A stretch of 64,000 bases of DNA from Microgenomates group bacterium (GCA_049303675.1 JBAQNJ010000001.1:278994-342993); one strand, 5' to 3'; shown: positions 2,018-64,000, counted from the first letter of the stretch. Notes: a model not told the origin generated them from the sequence alone. Translations and numbers: made by a program.

Positions 2018-4201
2018 TTAGTTTATTATTGTCGCTGGTAATTTTACAGGGTTTGTCGTCCCTTGTTCCAAGTTCACTGGACAGTCCAAACACACCCACA
2101 CACCGGTGGCGTCTTTAACAGACAGGTGGTCTTGCCATTCAATGTTCGGACTGGTATCCCCCTCTTTAAGAGTCCTATTAGTGTCTTTGTCAATCAAAAT
2201 ATTATTACGTATAGACAACCTCTCTGTTGGCATAAACTCCTTTTTGAAGTATTCATAGTGTGAATCACAGCCACCATCTGGCGGTAGTTGCCCAGTTAAG
2301 TTGCACACCGATATTTTCTGGACATCTGTTGGCATCACTTGTTTCCTGACTATTTTATCCTTCAGTAGATATGTCATGATCTTATTCCAAATTGGTGCCG
2401 CCCCCGTGGTGCCTGATACCAAATATCCCATTCGACTATTATTATTATTGCCTACCCAAACAGCAGTTACCACATCTGGTGTATAGCCAATCGTCCAGTT
2501 GTCTCTTAGATCATTAGTGGTTCCCGTTTTTACGGCCACCTCACTATGCCCCTTTATATTTAGAAGGGAGCCTCTGCCAAATACCATTCCCCTAGCTCCA
2601 TCATCACTCAATATGTCAGTGATAATAAAACTTGTCTCTCGTGATAGCACTCGTTTTCCCGGAGTTTCTGTATAAGTTTCTAGGACTTTTCCATGGCGAT
2701 CAGTTATGTTTAGAATAGTAGTTAGCTCCTGCCTTACCCCTCCACTTGCCAAAACTCCAAAGGCAGTATTCATCTCTGTCATCATCACTTCGCCTCCTCC
2801 CAGTGTTAAGGACAGTCCATATTTCGATGGATCAGCATAAGTACTAATTCCCATGGCCGATGCCGATGCTACAAAATTTACTAGACCCACCAACTTTAGC
2901 GTTTTTACAGCGGGGATATTCAGCGAATTTCCTAGAGAATTCCTCAAACTTTGGACTCCAGTATATCTTCCTCCATAGTTTGTTGGACAATATAGTTTTT
3001 GTCCCTCGACTCTAAAGCACGTCGGGTCATCATCAAAAACTGTTGCGGCTGTGACCACCCCCATTTCAATTCCGGTGGCATAATTTAGAGGCTTGATTGA
3101 TGATCCCGGCTGTCTTAGAGCAGTGGTGACATTAAAATTTCCTTCAATATCATTGGCAAAATAATCTTTTGAACCGACCATTGCCAGCACCTGTCCATTT
3201 TTCGGATCAGTAATTAGGGCAGCTCCGTTGCTAATTTTCTGTTTTACTAGTTTAGCTGTCTCTGAGGCAATCACTTCTTGGGCATATTGTTGGATATCTC
3301 TATCGAGGGTAGTGGTAATCCTCAGCCCTCCTTCGTTCACCATTTTTGCTCCATATTTTTCAATCAGTTGTTCTTTGACATAAAACACAAAATGAGGTGC
3401 TATTATTTTGTCTTTATTCACATAATAGTTCAAAGGTTCTCTTGCCGCCTTCTCTTTTTCCTCGCCACTAATATATCCCAGTTCCTGCATTCTGGTTAGC
3501 ACCATTAACTGCCTATTTTTTGCCGCTTCAGGGTAAGCAAAAGGAGAGTACCTTGTCGGCGAACCAGGTAGACCAGCCAATAATGCCATCTCTGCCAAGG
3601 TTAAGTCTTTGACCTCCTTGTTAAAGATCCCCTTGGCAGCTGCCTTCACCCCCCAGAGTGTTCCTCCGTATGGTGTTTGGTTAAAATACATCTCCAATAT
3701 CTGGTTCTTACTATATAGTATCTCAGTTACTACCGTCAAAATAGCCTCTTTTATTTTTCTGGTCCATGTCCTTTCTCGGGTCAACAGGGCGTTCTTGACT
3801 AATTGTTGGGTTAGGGTCGATCCTCCTTGAAGCCGTTTTTGAAAGACTGTCCTGTACAGACCTCTCATAATACCTTTTATATCAAAACCGCTGTGGCTAT
3901 AAAAATTAGCATCTTCTATCGCCATTGTTGCTTTTATCAAGTTAATCGGTATTTGGTCAAATCCAATAATATTTCTTTTTTTATCCGTATATATTTCATA
4001 AATTAGTTTTCCATTTCTGTCGTATATTTCCGAATTTTCAGGGTAAGTGTCAGAACTCAACTTTGTCGGATTGGGCATATCCCGCAGCACATAACCTAAT
4101 CCCAACACAATTATTAGCAATATACCCCCCGATACTATTAGTCCTTTATTCCTAATAGTTCCAGGTAAAACGAGTTTTTTCTTGATTTTTGTTCCAATCA
4201 T
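2018..4201 (-). CDS. Class A penicillin-binding protein (transglycosylase + transpeptidase)
   Basis: N-terminal TM segment. GT51 motifs EDANFYSHSGFD and GGSTLTQQLVKN; SxxK motif PGSSIKP; KTG motif KTGTTND. Confidence 0.9.
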   Translation of the reverse strand: MIGTKIKKKLVLPGTIRNKGLIVSGGILLIIVLGLGYVLRDMPNPTKLSSDTYPENSEIYDRNGKLIYEIYTDKKRNIIGFDQIPINLIKATMAIEDANFYSHSGFDIKGIMRGLYRTVFQKRLQGGSTLTQQLVKNALLTRERTWTRKIKEAILTVVTEILYSKNQILEMYFNQTPYGGTLWGVKAAAKGIFNKEVKDLTLAEMALLAGLPGSPTRYSPFAYPEAAKNRQLMVLTRMQELGYISGEEKEKAAREPLNYYVNKDKIIAPHFVFYVKEQLIEKYGAKMVNEGGLRITTTLDRDIQQYAQEVIASETAKLVKQKISNGAALITDPKNGQVLAMVGSKDYFANDIEGNFNVTTALRQPGSSIKPLNYATGIEMGVVTAATVFDDDPTCFRVEGQKLYCPTNYGGRYTGVQSLRNSLGNSLNIPAVKTLKLVGLVNFVASASAMGISTYADPSKYGLSLTLGGGEVMMTEMNTAFGVLASGGVRQELTTILNITDRHGKVLETYTETPGKRVLSRETSFIITDILSDDGARGMVFGRGSLLNIKGHSEVAVKTGTTNDLRDNWTIGYTPDVVTAVWVGNNNNSRMGYLVSGTTGAAPIWNKIMTYLLKDKIVRKQVMPTDVQKISVCNLTGQLPPDGGCDSHYEYFKKEFMPTERLSIRNNILIDKDTNRTLKEGDTSPNIEWQDHLSVKDATGVWVCLDCPVNLEQGTTNPVKLPATIIN

Positions 4202-16887: not shown

Positions 16888-17808
16888 ATGAAGATAGGCT
16901 ATATCGGACTTGGCAAAATGGGTAAAAATATGGTGTTTCGTTTATTAGAACAGAGGATCGACGTTGTCGCTTGGAACAGATCTCCCCAACCAATGGTCGA
17001 AGTTGGTGCCTCTGGAGCCAATACTTCCTCAGATATTATTCATCTTATTTCCCAACTCGAAGCTCCTCGTATTATTTGGCTAATGTTGCCAGCAGGCGAT
17101 GTTACCGACCAAATTATAGATATTTTAATCCCTCTATTAAGCCCCCATGATTTAATCATTGACGGCGCCAATTCTTTTTACAAAGATACACTCAAAAGAG
17201 GTCAGTTATTATCCCAACATTCAATCCGATTTATGGACATTGGTGTTTCCGGTGGTCCGGATGGCGCTCGAAATGGTGCTTGCCTCATGGTCGGAGGAAC
17301 AAGTGAAGACTATCAATATATTTTACCAGTGATTAAGGCCGCCAGTGCCCCGCAAGCCTTTGGCCATTTTGGACCGCTCGGTTCAGGCCACTTTGCCAAA
17401 ATGGTCCACAATGGAATCGAATATGGCATGATGCAGGCCATTGCCGAGGGTGCGGCAGTACTAAAAAATAGCTCATTTGATCTGGATTTAGTTGAAATTT
17501 TTCGAGTCTATGGACTAGGTTCAGTTATTTCCTCTCGCTTAGTTGATTGGACCCGAGAAGCATTGGAAGATGATATAAATTTAGTCAATATATCCGCCAA
17601 AATAAATGCCTCTGGTGAAGGGGAGTGGACAGTTAAAACAGCTCACGAGCTAGGAATCGAAGTGCCAATTATTGAAAAGTCTTTAGATATTCGTACGGCT
17701 TCTCAAACTGAAAGCAGTGATTCACCCAATTCCTTTCGCAACAAGGTTGTTTCCGCCCAAAGAGGCAAATTCGGTCATCATCCAGTCACCAAAAGCGAAG
17801 AGGTGTAA
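16888..17808 (+). CDS. gnd: 6-phosphogluconate dehydrogenase (short, decarboxylating-type family)
   Basis: IGYIGLGKMGKNM, GVSGGPDGARNGACLMVGG and HFAKMVHNGIEYGMMQAIAEG motifs. Confidence 0.85.
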   Translation: MKIGYIGLGKMGKNMVFRLLEQRIDVVAWNRSPQPMVEVGASGANTSSDIIHLISQLEAPRIIWLMLPAGDVTDQIIDILIPLLSPHDLIIDGANSFYKDTLKRGQLLSQHSIRFMDIGVSGGPDGARNGACLMVGGTSEDYQYILPVIKAASAPQAFGHFGPLGSGHFAKMVHNGIEYGMMQAIAEGAAVLKNSSFDLDLVEIFRVYGLGSVISSRLVDWTREALEDDINLVNISAKINASGEGEWTVKTAHELGIEVPIIEKSLDIRTASQTESSDSPNSFRNKVVSAQRGKFGHHPVTKSEEV

Positions 17809-20151: not shown

Positions 20152-20214
20152 GTCCGATTATAGTCCTTCTTACCTAGATTAGCATGATTATTATTGATAT
20201 AATCCCACAGTAAC

Positions 20215-20249
20215 CCGGTGATAGTCCCGCCGCTGCGGGACGGTTATGC
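20215..20249 (+). pseudogene. tRNA-Tyr-like 5' fragment with its D-loop replaced by a GC hairpin
   Basis: CCGGTGATAG-TCCCGCCGCTGCGGGAC-GGTTATGC matches positions 1-10 and GGTTATGC of the intact tRNA at 20532. It has its own TGATATAAT box (20195-20203) and CAGTAAC leader. The GIY-YIG ATG lies in the TTATGC. Confidence 0.6.
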
Positions 20250-20512
20250 AAATAATGTATTATGTCTATATTTTAAAAAGTTTGGTTGACGGAAAAATTT
20301 ATACAGGTTTTACTTCTGACCTAAAGCACCGATATCAACAACATTTAGACGGAATGGTTTTTTCGACCAAAAATCGTCGACCACTTAAACTAATTTATTA
20401 CGAAGCTTTTTTATCAAAAATAGATGCAGCAAAACAAGAAAAGTATCTAAAGTCAGGTGGTAAAGCAAAAATTGATTTAAAAACAAAAATAAAAAATAGC
20501 TTAGAACTTTGA
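20246..20512 (+). CDS. Small stand-alone GIY-YIG nuclease-domain protein
   Basis: YVYILKSLVDGKIYTGFTSDLKHRYQQH is the GIY-YIG signature; 88 aa. Confidence 0.8.
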   Translation: MQIMYYVYILKSLVDGKIYTGFTSDLKHRYQQHLDGMVFSTKNRRPLKLIYYEAFLSKIDAAKQEKYLKSGGKAKIDLKTKIKNSLEL

Positions 20513-20531
20513 TATAATTTGGCTCAGTAAC

Positions 20532-20603
20532 CCGGTGATAGCAAAGCGGTTATGCGTCGGTCTGTAAAACCGATCTAGGTAGGTTCAACTCCTACTCACC
20601 GGA
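20532..20603 (+). tRNA. tRNA-Tyr (anticodon GTA), class I, C1-G72
   Basis: Manual cloverleaf: acceptor CCGGTGA/TCACCGG, anticodon stem TCGGT/ACCGA, loop CTGTAAA, 5-nt variable loop, T arm GTAGG-TTCAACT-CCTAC, discriminator A. No encoded CCA. Promoter TGATATAAT at 20510-20518. Confidence 0.75.
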
Positions 20604-20613
20604 CATAATTTTA

Positions 20614-20661
20614 GCGACGGTCTGTAACCCCGCCGCTGCGGGGCAACTCCTACTCACCGGA
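20614..20661 (+). pseudogene. tRNA-Tyr-like 3' fragment with an internal GC hairpin
   Basis: GCGACGGTCTGTAA-CCCCGCCGCTGCGGGG-CAACTCCTACTCACCGGA matches the intact tRNA from its anticodon arm onward. The same CCCGCCGCTGCGGG hairpin replaces the variable/T-stem part. It overlaps the 3' end of the minus-strand Ham1-like ORF. Confidence 0.6.
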
Positions 20662-21297
20662 CTCATTTTTTAATCTCTCTAATATTTTTGGTGTTATCGG
20701 CCATAAAGTAGCCGCAGTATAATCCGCGTATTCTTCTGGTGTCATTTCTGATAAAGTATTTTTTTTCCCTTCAGGAATAAAAAACCAATCAAAATAATAA
20801 CCAAGTTTTGTAATTCGTAATTCATTTGCCGCTGTACCTCTTGTTCTGACACCTTCCGAAATTACTTCACCATTAGGTATAGCCAAGGCAATTCCATAAC
20901 CAAAATAAATAGTTCGATTTTCAGTACCATTCAATTTGTCTAACAGTTTTTGAGTATTAGTTACGTCCGACTCGTATCGATTGTCTACTCCCAGTATCAT
21001 TTTGTCGTTGCCTGTTAATTCTTTTTTGGATTCTGTCCCTGGCCAGCCACCAAGTGCTTCAAATTCAATTCCTCTGTCAAAAGAAATCGACATCAGACCA
21101 GATGCTCTGCAGTAAGCCCTAGCCTTCAATTCACTATCACCTACAAAGCTACCCGAATTCTCCTCAACTTCAATATCTATCCCCAGTTCTTTAGGGTTTA
21201 CAAATCTATACAGCTTATCAAGTCCCAACTTTCGACAAGAATATAAAAATGGTTCTACCTTTGATCTATTTGTCGTCGCAATTAGTAGGTCTTTCAT
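20650..21297 (-). CDS. Ham1/RdgB-like non-canonical purine NTP pyrophosphatase
   Basis: LLIATTNRSKVEPF N-terminus and FDRGIEFEALGGWPGTES resemble the ATgN.gK and D.GL.v.aL.G.PG motifs. Confidence 0.65.
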   Translation of the reverse strand: MKDLLIATTNRSKVEPFLYSCRKLGLDKLYRFVNPKELGIDIEVEENSGSFVGDSELKARAYCRASGLMSISFDRGIEFEALGGWPGTESKKELTGNDKMILGVDNRYESDVTNTQKLLDKLNGTENRTIYFGYGIALAIPNGEVISEGVRTRGTAANELRITKLGYYFDWFFIPEGKKNTLSEMTPEEYADYTAATLWPITPKILERLKNESGE

Positions 21298-24119: not shown

Positions 24120-25618
24120 TGTACTAAGAGTTTGATCGTGGCTCAGGGTAAACGCTGGCGATGTGCCTAAGACATGCAAGTCGAACGGGATTCATTATCT
24201 TCACAAAGTTTCTAATTTTAGTGATTTTGTGAAGATAGTGAGTTTAGTGGCGAACGGGTGAGTAATGAGTACGAACGTACTCTCAAGCGGAACATAGCCC
24301 ACCGAAAGGTGGAGTAATTTTCCATAGTCTCGCAAGAGTAAAGATGCAAATCACTTGAGAAGCGGCGTACTTGCCACCAGCTAGTTGGTAGGGTAACGGC
24401 CTACCAAGGCTATAACGGCTAACGGCTCTTAGCGGAGAGTCCGTCACAATGGGACTGAGACACGGCCCATACTTCTACGGAAGGCAGCAGTTAGGAATCT
24501 TGCGCAATGGACGAAAGTCTGACGCAGCGACATCGCGTGAAGGATGAAGGCCCTCGGGTCGTAAACTTCTTTTATTGTGCCATGAAGGCATTTTGAATCA
24601 ACAGCTACTAACTACGTGCCAGCAGTCGCGGTAATACGTAGGCTGTAAGCGTTACCCGGTTTTATTGGGCGTAAAGCGTCTGTAGGTGGTTTTGTAAGTC
24701 TTGTTTCAAAGACCCCAGCTTAACTGGGGGCAGGGGCAGGATACTGCAAGACTAGAGTGATATCGGGGTTACTGGAATTTTTAGTGTAGGGGTAAAATCC
24801 GTGGATACTAAAAAGAACACCAAGCGCGAAGGCGGGTAACCAGGTATTTACTGACACTCAGAGACGAAAGCTAGGGTAGCCAATCAGATTAGAGACCTGA
24901 GTAGTCCTAGCTGTAAACTATGTATGTTAATTCTCTGTAATTTATTATGGGGGATGTAAGCTAACGCGTTAAACATACCGCCTGGGGAGTATAGCCGCAA
25001 GGCCGAAACTCAAACGAATTGGCGGGGAGGCGCACAACCAGTGGAGCATGTGGTTCAATTCGATACGAAGCGATGAACCTTACCTGGGTTTGAAATGTAT
25101 CTGCAAACCCCCAGAAACGGGGGAATCCTTAGAGGGTGATACACAGCTGTTGCATGGCTGTCGTCAGCTCGTGACGTGAGTTGTTCTCTTAAGTGAGGTA
25201 ACGAGCGCAACCCCCATCCGGTGTTATTGTGTCACCGGAGACTGCCTAGCATTATTTTGTTAGGAGGAAGGAGGGGACGACGTCAAGTCAGCATGATGCT
25301 TATGTCCAGGGCTACACACATCCTACAATGAGGAAGACAATGGGTCGCGAAACCGCGAGGTGGAGCCAATCCCACAAACTTCCTCTCAGTTGGGATTGCA
25401 GGCTGAAACTCGCCTGCATGAACCCGGAATTGGTAGTAATCGCGCATCAGCAGCGCGCGGTGAATACGTTCTCGCCTCTTGCACACACTGCCCGTCAAAT
25501 CAGCAAAGTTGAGGGCACCTGAAGCTTGGCCTTTGGCCGAATCAAGGTGAATTCAGCGATGAGGGTTAAGTCGTAACAAGGTATCTGTACTGGAAGGTGC
25601 AGATGGATCACCTCCTTT
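24120..25618 (+). rRNA. rrs: 16S ribosomal RNA (about 1.5 kb, no large insertion)
   Basis: AGAGTTTGATCGTGGCTCAG at 24127; GTGCCAGCAGTCGCGGTAATAC; AAGTCGTAACAAGGTA; 3' end GGATCACCTCCTTT. Confidence 0.95.
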
Positions 25619-38892: not shown

Positions 38893-39132
38893 TTATACAA
38901 AATGTTTCTTGGCAAAAGCTATTCCCGACCCTGTTTTAAGATATTTCTCAAATTTATATGCGATATATTTGTCATTAAATGCAAAATACACCTTTACTTT
39001 CCAGGGTTTATAAAATTGTGTTGCGGGTACTTTTCCTTCATTGTGCATTTTAATCCGCTCTTTTAGGTCTTCAGTACATCCTACATACCTCCGTCCGTAC
39101 TTATTTGTAAGTATGTAAACATAAGAAAACAT
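38893..39132 (-). CDS. Small stand-alone GIY-YIG nuclease-domain protein
   Basis: YVYILTNKYGRRYVGCTEDLKERIKMHNEG signature; 79 aa. Lies immediately downstream of tmRNA. Confidence 0.8.
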   Translation of the reverse strand: MFSYVYILTNKYGRRYVGCTEDLKERIKMHNEGKVPATQFYKPWKVKVYFAFNDKYIAYKFEKYLKTGSGIAFAKKHFV

Positions 39133-39243: not shown

Positions 39244-39247
39244 CGCA

Positions 39248-39678
39248 GGAGGAGATGCTCGGTATTGAGCCGAGGTCCAAAGTGGACTATAAAAAACGTC
39301 TACAAGCTTAATTTACTTTATCCTACACTTTCAACAACTAAAGTAAACGAAAAGTGTTGAAATGTCGATTATTGAGGGCATTACCCCTCTCTTAAATCCA
39401 CGATCTAATCGAGAAGATCGGGACAGCATTCTAGTTTAATTTACACTAGCTAGTCTTCTCTAGAAAAGGGGACTAACTAATGGATGATTCTGTTTAGGCA
39501 AGAGCCCAAACAGGAGCCTTAGAAGCTAGAGCGCCTTTTACAGCGTTTGCAACTTTGGTTAAATCAACACCAAAAGTATTTTTGGCATGTTTGTTTTTGA
39601 CCCTGTTTAACGACTCAATGGATCAAAGTCGGCTTGCGGTTTTTTAAGGTACTCACCTTGTCGATGCAATACATCTCC
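39248..39678 (-). ncRNA. ssrA: tmRNA (SsrA), one-piece
   Basis: Minus strand. 5' GGAGATGTATTGCATCGACAAGG (compare E. coli GGGGCTGATTCTGGATTCGACGGG). 3' GGAC-CTCGG-CTCAATA-CCGAG-CATCTCC-TCC is a T-arm plus acceptor. Tag ORF GTT-GCAAACGCT... (resume codon 39550-39548, stop 39496-39494) encodes ANAVKGALASKAPVWALA. smpB lies 2.7 kb away. Confidence 0.75.
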
Positions 39679-42831: not shown

Positions 42832-43491
42832 CTAAATTATACCATTAAACCCACTTGCCAACTCTCGAAGTTCTTTCTCTGGATCTTTTGCCAATACGAA
42901 ATCACTCGCCGACACCACTCCAACTGCCCCCATCTTTAGGCAAACTTCTACATCAGCTTTGCTTTTGATTCCTGCTCCGGCAATTAGTTTTATTCCCTTG
43001 GCCATCTCCACCGCGTTTTTAATCATTTTTGGCTCTTCCGATGAGATTGACTTATCTTTACTGCCAATTAGACTTGGCGGTTCATACATTATCCAATCAG
43101 GCTTACCACTTGCTCCCCATTTTTCGATTTGGCCCAATGTCCCCATGCACAGGCATATTTCAAACCCATCTGGTTTCCCCTTGATTATTTTAAGCACTGT
43201 CCCTTTAGGTTTTTTGTGTTCCGAGTGGTTGACTAGTGACCCTTTTATCCCCAGCATTCTTGCCTGATCCATACTTGTCCAGCCAGTGGCCTTACCCCCA
43301 TTATATTCATCCACATTTTGTAGCCATACCTCTGCCCCTGTTTCTTGGATTATCCGTACTGCATCCAGTGCCGAGGCTACCACCACCATTCTGATTTTTG
43401 TCTCATCAGCCACTTTTTTGACAATTTTTGCCAACTTTACCGCCCCATCTCCAAAAGTTTCTTTATATATTTTAAAATTAATTAATATCAT
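42832..43491 (-). CDS. tpiA: Triosephosphate isomerase, short archaeal-type
   Basis: MILINFKIYKE, LVNHSEHK, YEPPSLIG and AGAGIKS; 219 aa as in archaeal TIMs. SD-like AAAGGA lies 5-10 nt upstream. Confidence 0.8.
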   Translation of the reverse strand: MILINFKIYKETFGDGAVKLAKIVKKVADETKIRMVVVASALDAVRIIQETGAEVWLQNVDEYNGGKATGWTSMDQARMLGIKGSLVNHSEHKKPKGTVLKIIKGKPDGFEICLCMGTLGQIEKWGASGKPDWIMYEPPSLIGSKDKSISSEEPKMIKNAVEMAKGIKLIAGAGIKSKADVEVCLKMGAVGVVSASDFVLAKDPEKELRELASGFNGII

Positions 43492-46490: not shown

Positions 46491-46497
46491 TCTTAGA

Positions 46498-46565
46498 GTG
46501 TTTAGAAGACCCTTAGGGGTTGACAACCGAGTCCGCCAAATGGTCCACGGTGCCCACTAAAACAC
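46498..46565 (+). promoter_or_regulatory. Structured metK 5' leader, candidate SAM-I/IV-like riboswitch
   Basis: Closing helix GTGTTTAG...CTAAAACAC encloses ACCC-TTA-GGGT, GACAACC, CCG...CGG and GGTGCCC (compare the SAM-I/IV core GGCAACC...GGUGCC). Followed by CCTT...AAGG around the SD. Confidence 0.35.
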
Positions 46566-46589
46566 GCCTTATCAATTAAAAGGAAAAAT

Positions 46590-47690
46590 ATGAATTATCC
46601 TCAATTTTCGTCCGAATCTGTCTGTGAAGGTCACCCCGACAAAGTCTGTGACCAAATTAGTGATGCTATCTTAGACGCTGCCTATACCCTCGACCCTATG
46701 GCTCGGGTCGCTATCGAGACTTTGGCTACGGTCAACAAATTAGTTTTAGCCGGAGAAGTTACTATTAATGGTACTCTCGATTATGCCGCTATTGCCCGCC
46801 AAAAGATCGCCGAGCTCGATTTTCTCGATTCAGTTTTAGATTTTACCGACAAATGCGACATCGAAATTGCTGTCCACACACAGTCACCCGATATTGCTCA
46901 GGGCGTCAATGCTGGTGGAGCCGGTGATCAGGGGATGATGTTTGGTTATGCTTGTCGCGAGACACCCGAACTAATGCCCCTTCCCATTTCCATGGCTCAC
47001 AAATTATGCCGTCAAATGGACGAATTACAGCGCATTCATCGTTGGATGCGCCCCGATGGCAAGTCTCAGGTTACCGTTCGTTATGATGGTCAGACTCCGG
47101 TAGCCATCGAGCGAGTTGTCTTGGCCAAGCCCATGAATTACGACCTCGCCCCTGCTGATTATTCTCACTTTTTCTATCAAAATGTCATTGTTCCAGTCTT
47201 AGCTGAATACAAGTTTGAAATCAGTGAAGACAAAATGATTCTCAATGGTACCGGTAAATGGACCATTGGTGGCCCCTCCGCCGATACTGGCGTTACTGGC
47301 CGCAAAATTGTCGTTGATACTTACGGTGGTATGGGTCGTATTGGTGGTGGTTGCTTTTCCGGCAAGGATACTACCAAGGTCGATCGCAGTGCCGCCTACG
47401 CCGCTCGCTATATTGCCAAAAATATTGTGGCTGCAGGTCTCGCCGATCGCTGCGAGGTTCAATTAGCCTATGCTATTGGTCAAGTCCTGCCTGTTGGTCA
47501 ATCTATTGAGACTTTTGGCACTGCCAAGTCAGAATTAAAGGTAATCGAAGATTTTGCATGGAAATTACTCGAATTATCGGTCGCTGGTATCAACAGTGGT
47601 CTCAATCTCCGCGTGCCAATGTATGCCAAAACCGCCCGCTATGGCCACTTTGGCCATCCCGAGTATCCATGGGAGAAGATAAAAGGCTAA
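46590..47690 (+). CDS. metK: S-adenosylmethionine synthetase
   Basis: SESVCEGHPDKVCDQISDAILDA, GAGDQGMMFGYA and DTYGG motifs. Confidence 0.95.
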   Translation: MNYPQFSSESVCEGHPDKVCDQISDAILDAAYTLDPMARVAIETLATVNKLVLAGEVTINGTLDYAAIARQKIAELDFLDSVLDFTDKCDIEIAVHTQSPDIAQGVNAGGAGDQGMMFGYACRETPELMPLPISMAHKLCRQMDELQRIHRWMRPDGKSQVTVRYDGQTPVAIERVVLAKPMNYDLAPADYSHFFYQNVIVPVLAEYKFEISEDKMILNGTGKWTIGGPSADTGVTGRKIVVDTYGGMGRIGGGCFSGKDTTKVDRSAAYAARYIAKNIVAAGLADRCEVQLAYAIGQVLPVGQSIETFGTAKSELKVIEDFAWKLLELSVAGINSGLNLRVPMYAKTARYGHFGHPEYPWEKIKG

Positions 47691-60184: not shown

Positions 60185-60257
60185 GGGTGGATAGTTCAGT
60201 TGGTTAGAATGCTGGTCCCCAAAACCGGCGACAATGGTTCAAGTCCATTTCCACCCA
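60185..60257 (+). tRNA. tRNA-Trp (anticodon CCA), G1-C72, A73
   Basis: Manual cloverleaf: acceptor GGGTGGA/TCCACCC, D arm GTTC-AGTTGGTTA-GAAT, anticodon stem CTGGT/ACCGG, loop CCCCAAA, T arm AATGG-TTCAAGT-CCATT, discriminator A. No encoded CCA. Confidence 0.85.
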
Positions 60258-60259
60258 CT

Positions 60260-61222
60260 ATGATTAATTATAATCTGACAGTAGATAGGATAAAAAACAG
60301 CCTGCAAAACGGGAGATGTTTCTATGGTGAAACCTATGATTCTCATGGCATGACAATTGACTCTCTAAAGTACTATTTTTTCTTATCTCTACTACATCTG
60401 ATATTAGCTAAATCAAATATCAAAACTGAGTCGACGGTGATAATCGCCGATATTGCCTCGGGTATCAACAAATCTAGTCAAAAAATAAATTGCGATATAG
60501 ATGAGGTGGGGAAAAATCGTCTAGATTATTGTGAAAAAATAAAAAAATATTTTAATTTACCTATCAAGTTTGTTTTAATGAGCAACTTTTTTGCCACCAA
60601 TCCCATTGCAAAACTAGTTGAACAATTCGAAAATGTTGGTCATAGCAACCCCAAAGTGACTGAACTTTTAGCAAAAACAGTACTCCAAAATAAAATTAAA
60701 CAAGAAAATGATTCGGGCTTTCGTTATGGTTATGAAGAAATTGCTACCGGATCATTTTTTAATATCAAAATTGGCCCACCGCGAGAAAAATATTACGACC
60801 AAGCCGCCAAAATTATTTGCAAAAAATTAAAACTGAATCAATTAAAAAGTATTTATCTGACACCCACGTTTCCTTTGGGTCAAGATTTTTCCTATTTCCT
60901 AACTCACCCCGAAATAGAAGAATTTGGACTTACACCATACAAAGCCGGTAGTAACCAAATGCAGGATTTCAGAATAACTATAAATACAACCACGATAGAA
61001 AAAGTTGAGCAACTAATCAACGATACTTACATCACTACTAATCCAAATTTACCAAATCCAATATTTGATTTACTGTTTATTGCCAATATGGCAGAAAAGT
61101 TAAAAAACAAAGAATATGAGTTTCCAGTTTACAAAAATAATATTTATATAAATCCAAAAAAACTAAAGAGTTTTGCTTTCCAGAAAATAACTAGGTTATT
61201 GATTGATCTAAAAAATCTATGA
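60260..61222 (+). CDS. Degenerate class Ic aminoacyl-tRNA-synthetase-like protein (TyrRS/TrpRS fold, HIGH and KMSKS lost)
   Basis: By-eye alignment to trpS and archaeal TyrRS: FYGETYDSHGMTIDS (HIGH region), TVIIADIASGIN, IKFVLMSNF, IKIGPPREKYYDQAAKII (compare PVGIDQHPYILLARDVAKKI), IYLTPTFPLG. ATG 2 nt after the tRNA; the track start at 60200 lies inside the tRNA. Confidence 0.45.
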   Translation: MINYNLTVDRIKNSLQNGRCFYGETYDSHGMTIDSLKYYFFLSLLHLILAKSNIKTESTVIIADIASGINKSSQKINCDIDEVGKNRLDYCEKIKKYFNLPIKFVLMSNFFATNPIAKLVEQFENVGHSNPKVTELLAKTVLQNKIKQENDSGFRYGYEEIATGSFFNIKIGPPREKYYDQAAKIICKKLKLNQLKSIYLTPTFPLGQDFSYFLTHPEIEEFGLTPYKAGSNQMQDFRITINTTTIEKVEQLINDTYITTNPNLPNPIFDLLFIANMAEKLKNKEYEFPVYKNNIYINPKKLKSFAFQKITRLLIDLKNL

Positions 61223-62385
61223 ATAGCCCACAGGCAATTGCCCAATCACATCAAGAATATCAATCTAAATTAACTATCAAGAAAAAAATTGGGGATTATT
61301 ACTTGGATCAAACCACCAAAAATGGTCTCTCTAGCCTTGATAAAATTAAGGCCTATTTACCTCTTGATCTACAGCCACTTCATTTTCGACGCAGCATCGC
61401 TATCGCCCATCTTGATCTTGAACCAATCATCGAAAAAATTGCCAAGAATCAGGAGTTTGTTATTGTTTCCGGTCTCAATCCGTCTTCTCCCTTACACCTC
61501 GGTCATAAGGCCCTGTTTGATTTACTCCTAAGTTTACAAGGACTAGGAGCCAGAGTATTTATTCCTCTGACCAACGACGAGTCGCTAGTTGATGGTAAGG
61601 TTAGTTCTTTGGCTCAGAGTCTAAACATTGCCAAAACCTCAATTCTCCCCGACATTATCAATTTTGGATTTGATCCGGACAAAACCCATATTTTTATTGA
61701 CTCCGAATATCCCCAGCTCTACAACTTCGCTATGTATCTCAGCCAACATATTTCCTTTGGACAACTTCGTCAAGTCTTTGGTGACGATTCACTGACTACT
61801 CCTGGCCAAATTTTTTATCGTGGAGTCGTTCAAATGGCGCAGATCCTGTTACCCCAACTCCCTGAATTTGGTGGTCCAAAAGTGACTTTGATTCCAGTTG
61901 GTATTGACCAGCACCCATATATATTATTGGCTCGTGATGTTGCCAAAAAAATTGGTATGATTCCACCGTCTGAGTTGGTTATTAGATTCTTGCCTAGCTT
62001 ACTAGGGCCAGAAGATAAAATGTCGGCATCAAAACCAAACACTGCTATTTACCTTAGTGACACTCCAGAGGCAATTCACAAAAAAATTAGTCGAGCCTAT
62101 ACCGGTGCTGTTTCAGCCCTTGATGTATATCAAGAACGGGGTGGTATTCCCGAAATATGCTCAGTTTTTACTCTTCTAAATTTTCATCATCCCGACGGTG
62201 TATTTGTCGAAAATATTAAACAAAGTTATTTGCATGGTCTTATTACCATGTCTGAGTTGAAAGAACTTACAACAGCTTTTATTACCGAATTAGTCACCCG
62301 CCACCAGCAAAAAAGCCCGCCTACCTCTGATCAAATCAATAAGTACATTTTAACTACACCATTAAAATCACTTTTAACCCTATGA
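61219..62385 (+). CDS. trpS: Tryptophanyl-tRNA synthetase, archaeal/eukaryal type
   Basis: PSSPLHLGH (HIGH), IPVGIDQHPY, KMSAS (KMSKS) and GGIPEIC. ATGA overlap with the upstream ORF. Confidence 0.9.
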   Translation: MNSPQAIAQSHQEYQSKLTIKKKIGDYYLDQTTKNGLSSLDKIKAYLPLDLQPLHFRRSIAIAHLDLEPIIEKIAKNQEFVIVSGLNPSSPLHLGHKALFDLLLSLQGLGARVFIPLTNDESLVDGKVSSLAQSLNIAKTSILPDIINFGFDPDKTHIFIDSEYPQLYNFAMYLSQHISFGQLRQVFGDDSLTTPGQIFYRGVVQMAQILLPQLPEFGGPKVTLIPVGIDQHPYILLARDVAKKIGMIPPSELVIRFLPSLLGPEDKMSASKPNTAIYLSDTPEAIHKKISRAYTGAVSALDVYQERGGIPEICSVFTLLNFHHPDGVFVENIKQSYLHGLITMSELKELTTAFITELVTRHQQKSPPTSDQINKYILTTPLKSLLTL

Positions 62386-62610
62386 ACCAGATACCCGAAT
62401 CTTTAAACAATAATTCAGACCAAAGGAGGCCTCTAGGTGAACTTCCTCACCAGAGGTTAGTTTGGTGAAACTCCATCACAAAGAAGGTTTATCACTTGCT
62501 TATCCCAATCGCCACTCCAAGTTCTTGACCAAGGTGCTGGCGATCAGCGAATTATCAAACATTTAGATAGAGTCGTCCCTCCTGCCGAGTTTCCCAAAAA
62601 AGAGGCTGAG

Positions 62611-63510
62611 GTGTTGGGCAAGTTTTTAAGTCAAAATCAAACGCATCTTTCTGCTATCGATTTAGGTGGAGTATCTCAAGCAGTAGATATCACCAAAAAA
62701 CTAGTCGCTACACCGTCGCTAGTAAAAAATACAAAAATAATTACTGTCTTTGGCGCTACCGAAGCCACACCTCTTCGGGCTCTAGCTTACCCAATCCCTG
62801 CCCTTAAGTTGGCCACGGAAATTGGAGCAGTAAATCATCAGCTTCTTCCTCAGGTTGAATTTATTTTTATGTCAGAGGCAGGAGTTTTAGCCAATGGACT
62901 CGATAGATCCAAAGTTCATCAAGAAAGGGATCTTCTGCAGAAACTAATCAAAGGCTACGTCGACGAATTTCATCCCTTACTTTCTAGTCATGTCAATTTT
63001 TCCAATGACGACAGTTTCACCCCTCAAGTCATTGCCTCATCTAGTTTCAAGAACTTAACTGATGTTCTCCAAAGTTCAAATGCTGTTAATGATTTATCCA
63101 GAATGGGCACTAGTCATGGCGGTACCAATAACTCCCTAAAATACGGTGTTCTTCACTCTTACGTCCACGACCTTGTCTTGGACGATTCAAATGTCGATCT
63201 ACTCATATCTCTCGGTGCCCAGCCCGAAAGACATTTTTACAAGACAAGACAAGTCCTCAAGCCACATCTTCCATCAGTTGATGGCTTTCGACCTGTAAAG
63301 ACAATTCAATATCTGAGTTCATTTAATGTTCCCCCTTACCAGCCATTGGCAAGTGGCGACCCTACGTTACGTCAAGTTATCAATGACTTTAATAATGTCG
63401 ATTTTGATGATCTTCAAACTCCGGTCCGACAAGCCATAAATTTATTGGCCAAGGATACATCAGGATATTCTACTCTCGCTAACTTTCTCAAAGAAAATCA
63501 AAATATTTAA
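62611..63510 (+). CDS. Second degenerate class Ic synthetase-like protein
   Basis: ITVFGATEATPLRALAYPI (HIGH region without His), VEFIFMSEAGVLANGLD, VNFSNDDSF, LKYGVLHSYVHDLVL....LLISLGAQPERHFYKTRQVL (compare GIDQHPYILLARDVA). GTG start; the frame is open for 150 nt upstream without a start codon. Confidence 0.4.
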   Translation: MLGKFLSQNQTHLSAIDLGGVSQAVDITKKLVATPSLVKNTKIITVFGATEATPLRALAYPIPALKLATEIGAVNHQLLPQVEFIFMSEAGVLANGLDRSKVHQERDLLQKLIKGYVDEFHPLLSSHVNFSNDDSFTPQVIASSSFKNLTDVLQSSNAVNDLSRMGTSHGGTNNSLKYGVLHSYVHDLVLDDSNVDLLISLGAQPERHFYKTRQVLKPHLPSVDGFRPVKTIQYLSSFNVPPYQPLASGDPTLRQVINDFNNVDFDDLQTPVRQAINLLAKDTSGYSTLANFLKENQNI

Positions 63511-63527
63511 ATGTTAAACTTCATCAT

Positions 63528-64000
63528 ATGATCGAACCAATTGTTCTTCAAAATAATCAAACACTCGCAAAACTTGGCATTGAATATACCAACCTCGAGC
63601 ATCCACCCATCAAAGAAATCTTTGATTGTATGCGTTTTCTTGGTCTGCCCATTTCCGAAGGTTTTTCCACCCTTATCATGAAGGCTGATGATCGCTATGT
63701 GGCCATCATCCGTCGCGATGATTGTAAATTAGACTTAAACAAAGCCTGTAAGGTAATTGGCTGCTCCAAATTAAATTTAGCATCCCCCGACGAGTTTGAA
63801 GCCTTAACCCACTTACCTTCCGGAGCCGCTTTCGTCGTTAATTCAGGAATAAAAACATATCTCGACCAAAAGCTATTCGATAAAGAATACCTAATTGGTG
63901 GATCAGGCAGTTTGTCAGTCAGTAACAAATACCGTTCCGTTGACCTCAAAAAAATACCCGACAGCATCATTGTCGATATTGCTGATATTAAGGCAAAACA
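63528..64000 (+). CDS. YbaK/ProX-like aminoacyl-tRNA deacylase domain protein; 3' end beyond window
   Basis: Not in the ORF track because it runs off the end. Manual translation MIEPIVLQNNQTLAKLGIEYTNLEHPPIKEIFDC...STLIMKADDRYVAIIRRDDCKLDLNKA...LPSGAAFVVNSG...LIGGSGSL fits the YbaK/EbsC editing-domain pattern. Confidence 0.6.
   Translation, partial: MIEPIVLQNNQTLAKLGIEYTNLEHPPIKEIFDCMRFLGLPISEGFSTLIMKADDRYVAIIRRDDCKLDLNKACKVIGCSKLNLASPDEFEALTHLPSGAAFVVNSGIKTYLDQKLFDKEYLIGGSGSLSVSNKYRSVDLKKIPDSIIVDIADIKAK

Follow-up and report, generated by a model that had tools for sequence, protein, structure and literature searches.

The window analyzed herein, a stretch of 64,000 nucleotides from a Microgenomates group bacterium, carries on its plus strand at 20532..20603 a gene of 72 nt for tRNA-Tyr(GUA) with a class I body, a C1-G72 first pair and the discriminator base A73, as determined by ARAGORN, by Rfam and by covariation in 20 CPR homologues. 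ARAGORN places a tRNA-Tyr with the anticodon GTA at 20532-20604, and the Rfam model RF00005 aligns along its full length (1-71) to 20532-20603 with 59.9 bits, its gathering score being 29 and the E value for the whole window 1.9e-10. From the sequence and the cmscan alignment, the acceptor stem is CCGGTGA/TCACCGG, in which C1 (20532) pairs with G72 (20602) and is completed by A73 at 20603, the D-arm is GCAA-AGCGGUU-AUGC, the anticodon arm is UCGGU-CUGUAAA-ACCGA and the T-arm is GTAGG-TTCAACT-CCTAC. The GTA anticodon (20564-20566) lies inside the 7-nt loop CTGTAAA (20562-20568) with U33 and a purine at position 37, as expected of tRNA-Tyr(GUA), and the variable loop is the 5-nt TCTAG (20574-20578), so that there is no V-arm. 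The terminal CCA is not encoded, the next bases being CATAAT. Folded as a single sequence the gene gives -25.2 kcal/mol (z=-3.4), a value equalled by 0 of 200 shuffles. It is one of two tRNA genes in the window by both ARAGORN and Rfam, the other being a tRNA-Trp. The earlier note, which had placed a GTA anticodon, C1-G72, a 5-nt variable loop and A73 at this position, is correct in all of these particulars, and model-based folding, which could have assigned another anticodon or isotype, still gives a tRNA-Tyr with GTA (ARAGORN, and the RF00005 cloverleaf).

The long variable arm of bacterial tRNA-Tyr is read by the S4-like domain of the bacterial TyrRS. A canonical bacterial tRNA-Tyr has G1-C72 and a class II long variable arm, whereas the gene described here has C1-G72 and is armless. 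The tyrosine identity set of Archaea and Eukarya consists of A73, C1-G72 and the anticodon bases G34, U35 and A36 (Giege & Eriani 2023, PMC9976931), and on the tRNA side all of these marks, together with the class I body, are present at this locus, in agreement with what the earlier note had proposed; for Bacteria the table in the same review gives A73 and the anticodon, and its text adds the G1-C72 pair. The stretch 20532-20603 is a real tyrosine tRNA gene of an ultrasmall (CPR/Microgenomates) bacterium, with archaeal/eukaryotic recognition marks in place of the bacterial ones.

An extended -10 promoter-like box, TGATATAAT, is found in the sequence at 20510..20518 on the plus strand, 13-21 nt upstream of the 5' end of the tRNA-Tyr, where it overlaps the stop codon of a small GIY-YIG nuclease ORF. 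A promoter scan for two hexamers made no call at TGATATAAT because there is no good -35 element. In 11 of the 12 relatives described below a TGnTATAAT or TGATAAAAT box occurs at the same distance, ending ~11-14 nt before the tRNA, the exception (L014) having a weaker TATAAT only, further upstream. We suggest that the tRNA-Tyr is transcribed from its own promoter, for which this conserved box is the best available hint.

Genomic setting and relatives

The neighbours of the tRNA-Tyr are ordinary bacterial genes for an exonuclease III-like protein (xth), a glyoxalase, Ham1, NrdR and RecF (Pfam), and the window also carries, by Rfam, a bacterial 16S rRNA at 24120-25618, 3.5 kb from the tRNA-Tyr, and a tmRNA at 39247-39678 on the minus strand, 19 kb from it. 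The TrpRS of the window is encoded on the contig JBAQFH010000001.1 of 998,417 bp (GCA_049287145.1, a 2025 Microgenomates MAG), the proteins of which are labelled 'Microgenomates group bacterium' by NCBI and for which a near-identical sister genome exists. Archaeal DNA, from DPANN for example, could in principle have been mis-binned or mis-assembled into a bacterial MAG, and bins of CPR and DPANN are known to cross-contaminate, according to the text of Mukai et al. (2017, PMC5370408). Here the 998-kb contig has the tRNA among bacterial genes (xth, NrdR and recF), at least 12 independent MAGs show this arrangement too, and the body of the tRNA is nearer to that of bacterial tRNAs than to that of the archaeal tRNA-Tyr compared. 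Given the bacterial neighbours, the 16S rRNA and the tmRNA on a Microgenomates contig, archaeal contamination is not a serious option and we regard it as effectively refuted.

Rfam found no group I intron or other known RNA in the interval 20400-20800 at E values up to 10, and a preprint on tRNA introns in Patescibacteria deals with tRNA-Asn/Asp and HNH genes, a case different from the tRNA-Tyr here. Elsewhere in the window a SAM-I/IV riboswitch match at 46493-46599 on the plus strand, exactly at the gathering score of 41.1 bits, lies directly 5' of an ORF of 366 aa (46590-47690).

Two further features of archaeal type accompany the tRNA-Tyr. The first is an operon that begins with a tRNA-Trp(CCA) at 60185..60257 on the plus strand (ARAGORN; Rfam 63.1 bits), in which G1-C72 and A73 are archaeal/eukaryal marks, and continues on the same strand with ORF1 (60260..61222, 320 aa, from the gene call in L001), which has no match in Pfam or NCBIfam, and with TrpRS-A (61219..62385, 388 aa), an archaeal/eukaryal-like enzyme (PF00579 at 117.8 bits) whose best NCBIfam matches are NF008927/NF008925 (PRK12285-type), with TIGR00233 also above its cut-off. 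An ORF of 299 aa that matches no family separates TrpRS-A from a fusion of a YbaK-like domain to a bacterial-type TrpRS (487 aa; PF04073 and PF00579, with TIGR00233 trpS at 269 bits), which starts at 63528 on the plus strand, runs off the window at 64000 and is complete in L001 (5310-6773). ORF1, TrpRS-A and the fusion each contain no tryptophan, and the four operon proteins together have none in 1,494 residues, compared with 1.4% in the long ORFs of the window. The text of Mukai et al. (PMC5370408) describes a rare Microgenomates operon in which tRNA-Trp(A73) is joined by an unknown ORF1 and by a TrpRS of a new clade, TrpRS-A1. In that account a bacterial TrpRS, which may carry a fused small protein, often comes next, and all of the proteins are free of tryptophan. 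The window, with its continuation in L001 and L136, carries this CPR TrpRS-A1 operon complete (60185-64000), and the archaeal-type TrpRS/tRNA-Trp pair of the earlier note proves to be the G1-C72, A73 tRNA-Trp and the PRK12285-type TrpRS of that operon. The second feature is the triosephosphate isomerase (TIM) encoded at 42832-43491 on the minus strand (219 aa), which was likewise rightly called archaeal-type: it passes the subfamily model NF003302/PRK04302 with 178.5 bits against a cut-off of 132 and fails the general (bacterial/eukaryotic) model TIGR00419 with 90.5 against 130.6. We take PRK04302 to be the archaeal-type TIM family. Just downstream of the Trp operon, ~6.9 kb past the right end of the window, L136 encodes a tyrosine recombinase (Phage_integrase, 16902-17768), near which lie small toxin-antitoxin-like ORFs and a 23S_rRNA_IVP gene; this region may be mobile.

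A collection of species-representative genomes gave 0 matches to a strict tRNA pattern, so that this genome is apparently outside the collection, and 26 loci with a relaxed one. At 12 of the 26 the tRNA-Tyr is 74-93% identical to that of the window overall and 78-95% identical over the body (positions 8-65), and all 12 have C1-G72, A73 and a 5-nt variable loop. They come from four Shapirobacteria MAGs, three MAGs of the 'Patescibacteria group' and five co-assembly bins of 'uncultured Gammaproteobacteria', the closest relatives found being Shapirobacteria and allied MAGs, for which the identity of the tRNA-Tyr is 81-93% overall and 86-95% over the body. The contigs named 'uncultured Gammaproteobacteria bacterium' that carry this Microgenomates tRNA-Tyr (L009, L010, L017, L026 and L028) are almost certainly mislabelled, since the proteins encoded around it reach 78% identity with those of the window. 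In at least 12 related MAGs the tRNA-Tyr sits in the same xth…recF neighbourhood, with amino acid identities to the window of 61-78% for xth and 45-73% for recF, and from these shared exonuclease III and RecF flanks we consider the tRNA-Tyr genes to be orthologues retained by vertical descent.

[quoted passage not shown] Their hosts include Dojkabacteria, MAGs labelled Saccharibacteria or BroJett019, and others; Saccharibacteria do not appear in the lineage list given in the text of the 2017 study (PMC5370408), and the MAG labels may be unreliable. A Woesebacteria contig (MGGJ01000013.1; L019, 2486-2556) has a class I tRNA of 71 nt with GUA, G1-C72, A73 and a 4-nt variable loop, a tRNA-Cys-like architecture that lacks both the V-arm of bacteria and the C1-G72 of archaea; it may be an intermediate or a third tyrosine solution within Microgenomates.

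A bacterial-looking body under archaeal identity marks

In the tRNA-Tyr only the identity marks appear to be archaeal, and the body looks bacterial. Its identity over positions 8-65 amounts to 61-64% for the tRNA-Tyr of Methanocaldococcus jannaschii, of a Promethearchaeota MAG and of yeast, compared with 78% for the tRNA-Cys of the relative L016, 71% for E. coli tRNA-Cys and ~77% for tRNA-Gln genes of T5-like phages. The body is thus not nearer to archaeal tRNA-Tyr than to bacterial tRNAs, as archaeal descent would lead one to expect, with the archaeal side of the comparison made up of M. jannaschii and Promethearchaeota. With the M. jannaschii tRNA-Tyr the gene shares C1-G72, A73, GUA, a 5-nt variable loop, the CCGG start and the CCGGA end, whereas the body is 64% identical, the archaeal D-loop is AGCCUGGUA in place of AGCGGUU, and where the archaeal molecule forms an ordinary G15-C48 pair, this one has G15·G48 together with A13·A22. 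With E. coli tyrT it shares GUA and A73, and the bodies are 57% identical.

The core of the molecule, with its A13·A22 mismatch, its G15·G48 Levitt pair and its D-loop AGCGGUU, is found in 13 of 13 members of the family and in the L016 tRNA-Cys, and these three features are hallmarks of tRNA-Cys of the E. coli type (PMC9976931). This tRNA-Cys-like core was noted both at 20532-20603 in the window and at 1138-1209 in L016. The likeness to bacterial tRNA-Cys extends to a near-identical D-arm and core, a variable loop ending in CUAG and anticodons that are one base apart (GCA and GUA), whereas the tRNA-Tyr differs in having A73, C1-G72 and a 5-nt variable loop where tRNA-Cys has U73, G1-C72 and a 4-nt loop. 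In L016 a gap of 6 nt separates the orthologous tRNA-Tyr from the tRNA-Cys downstream of it, and the two share the anticodon stem. A BLAST search against 5,426 E. coli genomes gave cysT as the sole match, a weak one (E=0.5), confined to a strain in which one SNP improves the match. The overall similarity is not specific to tRNA-Cys, since tRNA-Gln genes of T5-like phages reach an equal identity (77%), and an origin from tRNA-Cys is accordingly put forward as a hypothesis: the tRNA-Tyr may have arisen from a tRNA-Cys by an anticodon shift. The text of Mukai et al. (2017, PMC5370408), figures aside, makes no mention of a tRNA-Cys-like core.

The GIY-YIG gene and the split tRNA pieces

The ORF upstream of the tRNA-Tyr, at 20246..20512 on the plus strand, encodes a small GIY-YIG nuclease (Pfam PF01541, 55.3 bits, E=8e-15). 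Read from the ATG at 20246 it has 88 aa, and from the ATG at 20255, the more likely start, 85 aa (MYYVYILKS); the 85-aa version occurs in the sister genome, where NCBI names it 'GIY-YIG nuclease family protein'. By Pfam the GIY-YIG catalytic domain is present and the 88 aa contain no second domain. The ORF is preceded, at 20194..20249 on the plus strand, by a duplicate of the promoter box together with a broken tRNA-Tyr 5' piece (sequence, hairpin search and alignment), which run in the order TTGATATAAT, CAGTAAC, tRNA positions 1-10 (CCGGTGATAG), a GC hairpin TCCCGCCGCTGCGGGA (20225-20240) and CGGTTATGC, the last of these being the end of the D-arm; aligned with the intact gene, the piece gives exact blocks of 10 and 17 nt. 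A broken 3' piece follows 10 nt after the intact gene, at 20614..20662 on the plus strand, where it was found through direct repeats and an exact 18-mer. It consists of GCGaCGGTCTGTAA (positions 24-37), a GC hairpin CCCCGCCGCTGCGGGG (20628-20643) and CAACTCCTACTCACCGGAC (positions 57-73), which is identical to the intact tRNA-Tyr, and part of it coincides with the final codons and stop of the Ham1 ORF (20650-21297, minus strand). The direct repeats, D1 and D3, have a spacing of 58-60, and the exact 18-mer is present twice in the window where 0.03 occurrences are expected. The cassette as a whole therefore reads promoter box, 5' piece and hairpin, GIY-YIG ORF, second promoter box and intact tRNA-Tyr, and 3' piece with the same hairpin; the hairpins of the two pieces are near-identical (CCCGCCGCTGCGGG). 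Three other readings of these elements were rejected. The 3' piece is not a second tRNA, having neither anticodon nor T stem and folding no better than shuffles; it is not an intrinsic terminator, as no T-run follows the hairpin; and the copies do not form an attL/attR pair around an island, as they are only 10 nt apart (12 nt from the ARAGORN end of the tRNA at 20604).

The same layout recurs in one relative. At 930-1640 on the minus strand of L016, a GIY-YIG gene 66% identical to that of the window is directly upstream of the tRNA-Tyr, and the order is a hairpin-bearing partial tRNA-Tyr with promoter, the nuclease, a promoter, the tRNA-Tyr and the tRNA-Cys, after which come 2.5 tandem units of 52 nt, each made of tRNA-Cys positions 27-37, a hairpin and positions 57-73, and, as the last element, the tRNA-Tyr 3' end behind a longer hairpin. 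Two of the other relatives have remnants, L017 (2440-2505) retaining the final tRNA-Tyr 3' piece of the L016 type and L028 (~3982-4150) a remnant of the GIY-YIG nuclease, and the rest of the 12 loci have neither nuclease nor split tRNA-Tyr piece. From their sequences, the two pieces seem to have belonged to a single, older tRNA-Tyr gene into which, near position 25, the nuclease and a fresh copy of the tRNA were inserted. Together with the patchy distribution, this split target suggests a putative homing-type element.

Free-standing GIY-YIG homing endonucleases occur in tRNA gene clusters, an example being SegB of phage T4. The element described here resembles them in that a small GIY-YIG gene, patchy among relatives, lies beside tRNA genes, and it differs in that the predicted nuclease has 85-88 aa and consists of the catalytic domain only, with no recognisable DNA-binding domain. 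The split tRNA pieces and their GC hairpins are not known to have a counterpart. Neither the GIY-YIG neighbour nor the split pieces are mentioned in the text of Mukai et al. (2017, PMC5370408), leaving its figures aside. The window encodes a second small GIY-YIG paralogue at 38929-39123 on the minus strand, ~120 nt downstream of the tmRNA; its identity with that at 20.2 kb is 47%, and no comparable hairpins or pieces of tmRNA were found at that site.

We tentatively put forward, as a possibility rather than as the expected outcome, that the V-arm-less tRNA-Tyr of this Microgenomates clade derives from a class I scaffold of bacterial origin, most likely a duplicated tRNA-Cys, and is now carried by the GIY-YIG cassette. 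In this scheme the anticodon of the tRNA-Cys would have changed from GCA to GUA, U73 would have become A73 and the first pair would have been flipped, with no import from archaea, and the cassette would insert into a resident tRNA-Tyr and bring an intact copy with it, leaving the old promoter to drive the nuclease.

One might argue from the same elements that the tRNA-Tyr is an extra copy, a passenger of a mobile GIY-YIG cassette, and that the main, canonical tRNA-Tyr of the organism lies elsewhere. The gene is indeed flanked by the GIY-YIG ORF and the split tRNA-Tyr pieces, and the layout of the cassette is the same in L016. However, in the relatives that lack the nuclease this tRNA likewise lies between xth and recF, at an unchanged chromosomal position, and the split copy shares its C1...G72 ends with the intact gene, which means that no canonical gene was replaced. 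Moreover, CPR genomes of ~1 Mb usually have one gene per anticodon. We consider a mere passenger very improbable.

Charging of the tRNA-Tyr and its implications

We propose that this CPR (Microgenomates) bacterium follows the archaeal/eukaryotic rules of tyrosine recognition and that the gene encodes its working, housekeeping tRNA-Tyr, and we put the probability of this reading at about 0.85. In the proposed pathway, the gene would be transcribed from its extended -10 promoter, the ends of the transcript would be trimmed, and CCA, which has to be added post-transcriptionally as it is not encoded, would then be attached; a TyrRS of the archaeal/eukaryal type would charge the product, reading C1-G72, A73 and the GUA anticodon. 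Such an enzyme lacks the S4-like domain of the bacterial TyrRS and so needs no long variable arm. We infer the type of the TyrRS from the literature on the closest relatives and from the strict conservation of C1-G72 and A73 amid neighbouring pairs that vary. According to the text of Mukai, Reynolds, Crnkovic & Soll (2017, Life 7:8, PMC5370408), Microgenomates have C1-G72 tRNA-Tyr together with TyrRS of the archaea/eukarya type; many of these tRNAs keep the V-arm and some are without it, the chief TyrRS groups include Roizman-, Davies- and Shapirobacteria, and an archaeal/eukaryal-type TyrRS was present wherever such a tRNA-Tyr was found in Microgenomates. The archaeal-like aminoacylation systems that the earlier note saw in this lineage are thus supported, the same conclusion having been reached for Microgenomates in that text. 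The present gene belongs to the same Microgenomates group as the published cases and has C1-G72 and A73 in the V-arm-lacking form, and it differs from them in coming from a 2025 MAG outside their set and in that its TyrRS is assigned by inference. The archaeal-identity tRNA-Tyr of Microgenomates is thus already published, by the text of 2017, and this locus is a further example.

The search for the enzyme itself covered the window, its surroundings and public sequence collections. In the window, tblastn with the TyrRS of M. jannaschii and of B. stearothermophilus matched only the two TrpRS genes; the same queries found no TyrRS in the relatives' loci (L001-L028), and gene tables and Pfam revealed none in the 8-10 kb beyond both ends of the window. 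The M. jannaschii, human and yeast TyrRS sequences were checked with the PDB. A protein search with human mini-TyrRS gave only vertebrates among the matches listed, and one with a second query (P0239) gave eukaryotes, giant viruses and Micrarchaeia among the matches listed. A profile of the M. jannaschii, human and yeast enzymes found only methanogen-like matches in metagenome contigs and giant viruses in viral contigs. In an exhaustive search of representatives the best 150 clusters included no CPR TyrRS; of 10 candidates whose size and composition are prokaryote-like, a single member of a single cluster bears a name, the generic 'tyrosyl-tRNA synthetase' with no organism. The six contigs with TyrRS candidates have giant-virus or archaeal neighbours. 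Among the best 120-150 matches listed per search, seeds of archaeal, human and DPANN-like TyrRS thus yielded eukaryotes, giant viruses and archaea, DPANN included.

Conservation among homologues bears directly on the type of enzyme. A gapless alignment of 20 CPR tRNA-Tyr genes (19 public genes and that of the window, 15 distinct sequences) has standard pairs in 96.5% of cells, compared with 32-46% when the partners are slid, and changes on both sides in 11 of 21 pairs. C1-G72, C2-G71 and A73 are invariant in all 20. Any explanation in which the enzyme is a bacterial-type TyrRS that has become relaxed at the 1-72 pair and independent of the V-arm, with the 'archaeal' marks as drift in a reduced genome, must accommodate this invariance of C1-G72 and A73 in 20 of 20 CPR sequences while neighbouring pairs vary freely, a pattern that argues for selection on C1-G72 rather than drift. 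It must also accommodate the archaeal/eukaryal-type TyrRS that Mukai et al. found with such tRNAs, as stated in their text (PMC5370408). There is a precedent in its favour, as human mitochondrial TyrRS charges tRNA with G1-C72 and with C1-G72 equally well and its tRNA has no V-arm (PMC9976931 and the text of PMC5370408); the tRNA body looks bacterial; and no TyrRS was recovered from the window, its 8-10 kb flanks or the relatives' loci. On balance we judge a relaxed bacterial enzyme unlikely, and return to a TyrRS of the archaeal/eukaryal type as the preferred explanation.

It was long held that two amino acids, tyrosine and tryptophan, have rules of tRNA recognition that draw a clean line between bacteria on one side and archaea and eukaryotes on the other. 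That CPR bacteria break this rule, a point made in 2017, bears on the fixity of tRNA identity and on the possibility that the archaeal rules are ancestral, and the locus described here adds another nearly complete genome with both the tyrosine and the tryptophan exception. The bacterial, tRNA-Cys-like body hints that the host remodelled a tRNA of its own for a foreign enzyme rather than importing the tRNA, and the gene is tied to a nuclease cassette that is possibly mobile. Pairs of this kind are also candidate orthogonal TyrRS/tRNA pairs for genetic code expansion. If the tRNA-Cys scaffold and the cassette were both borne out, they would provide a concrete route by which tRNA identity can be rewired after a foreign synthetase has been acquired, and the GIY-YIG cassette would be the vehicle that spreads the rewired tRNA.
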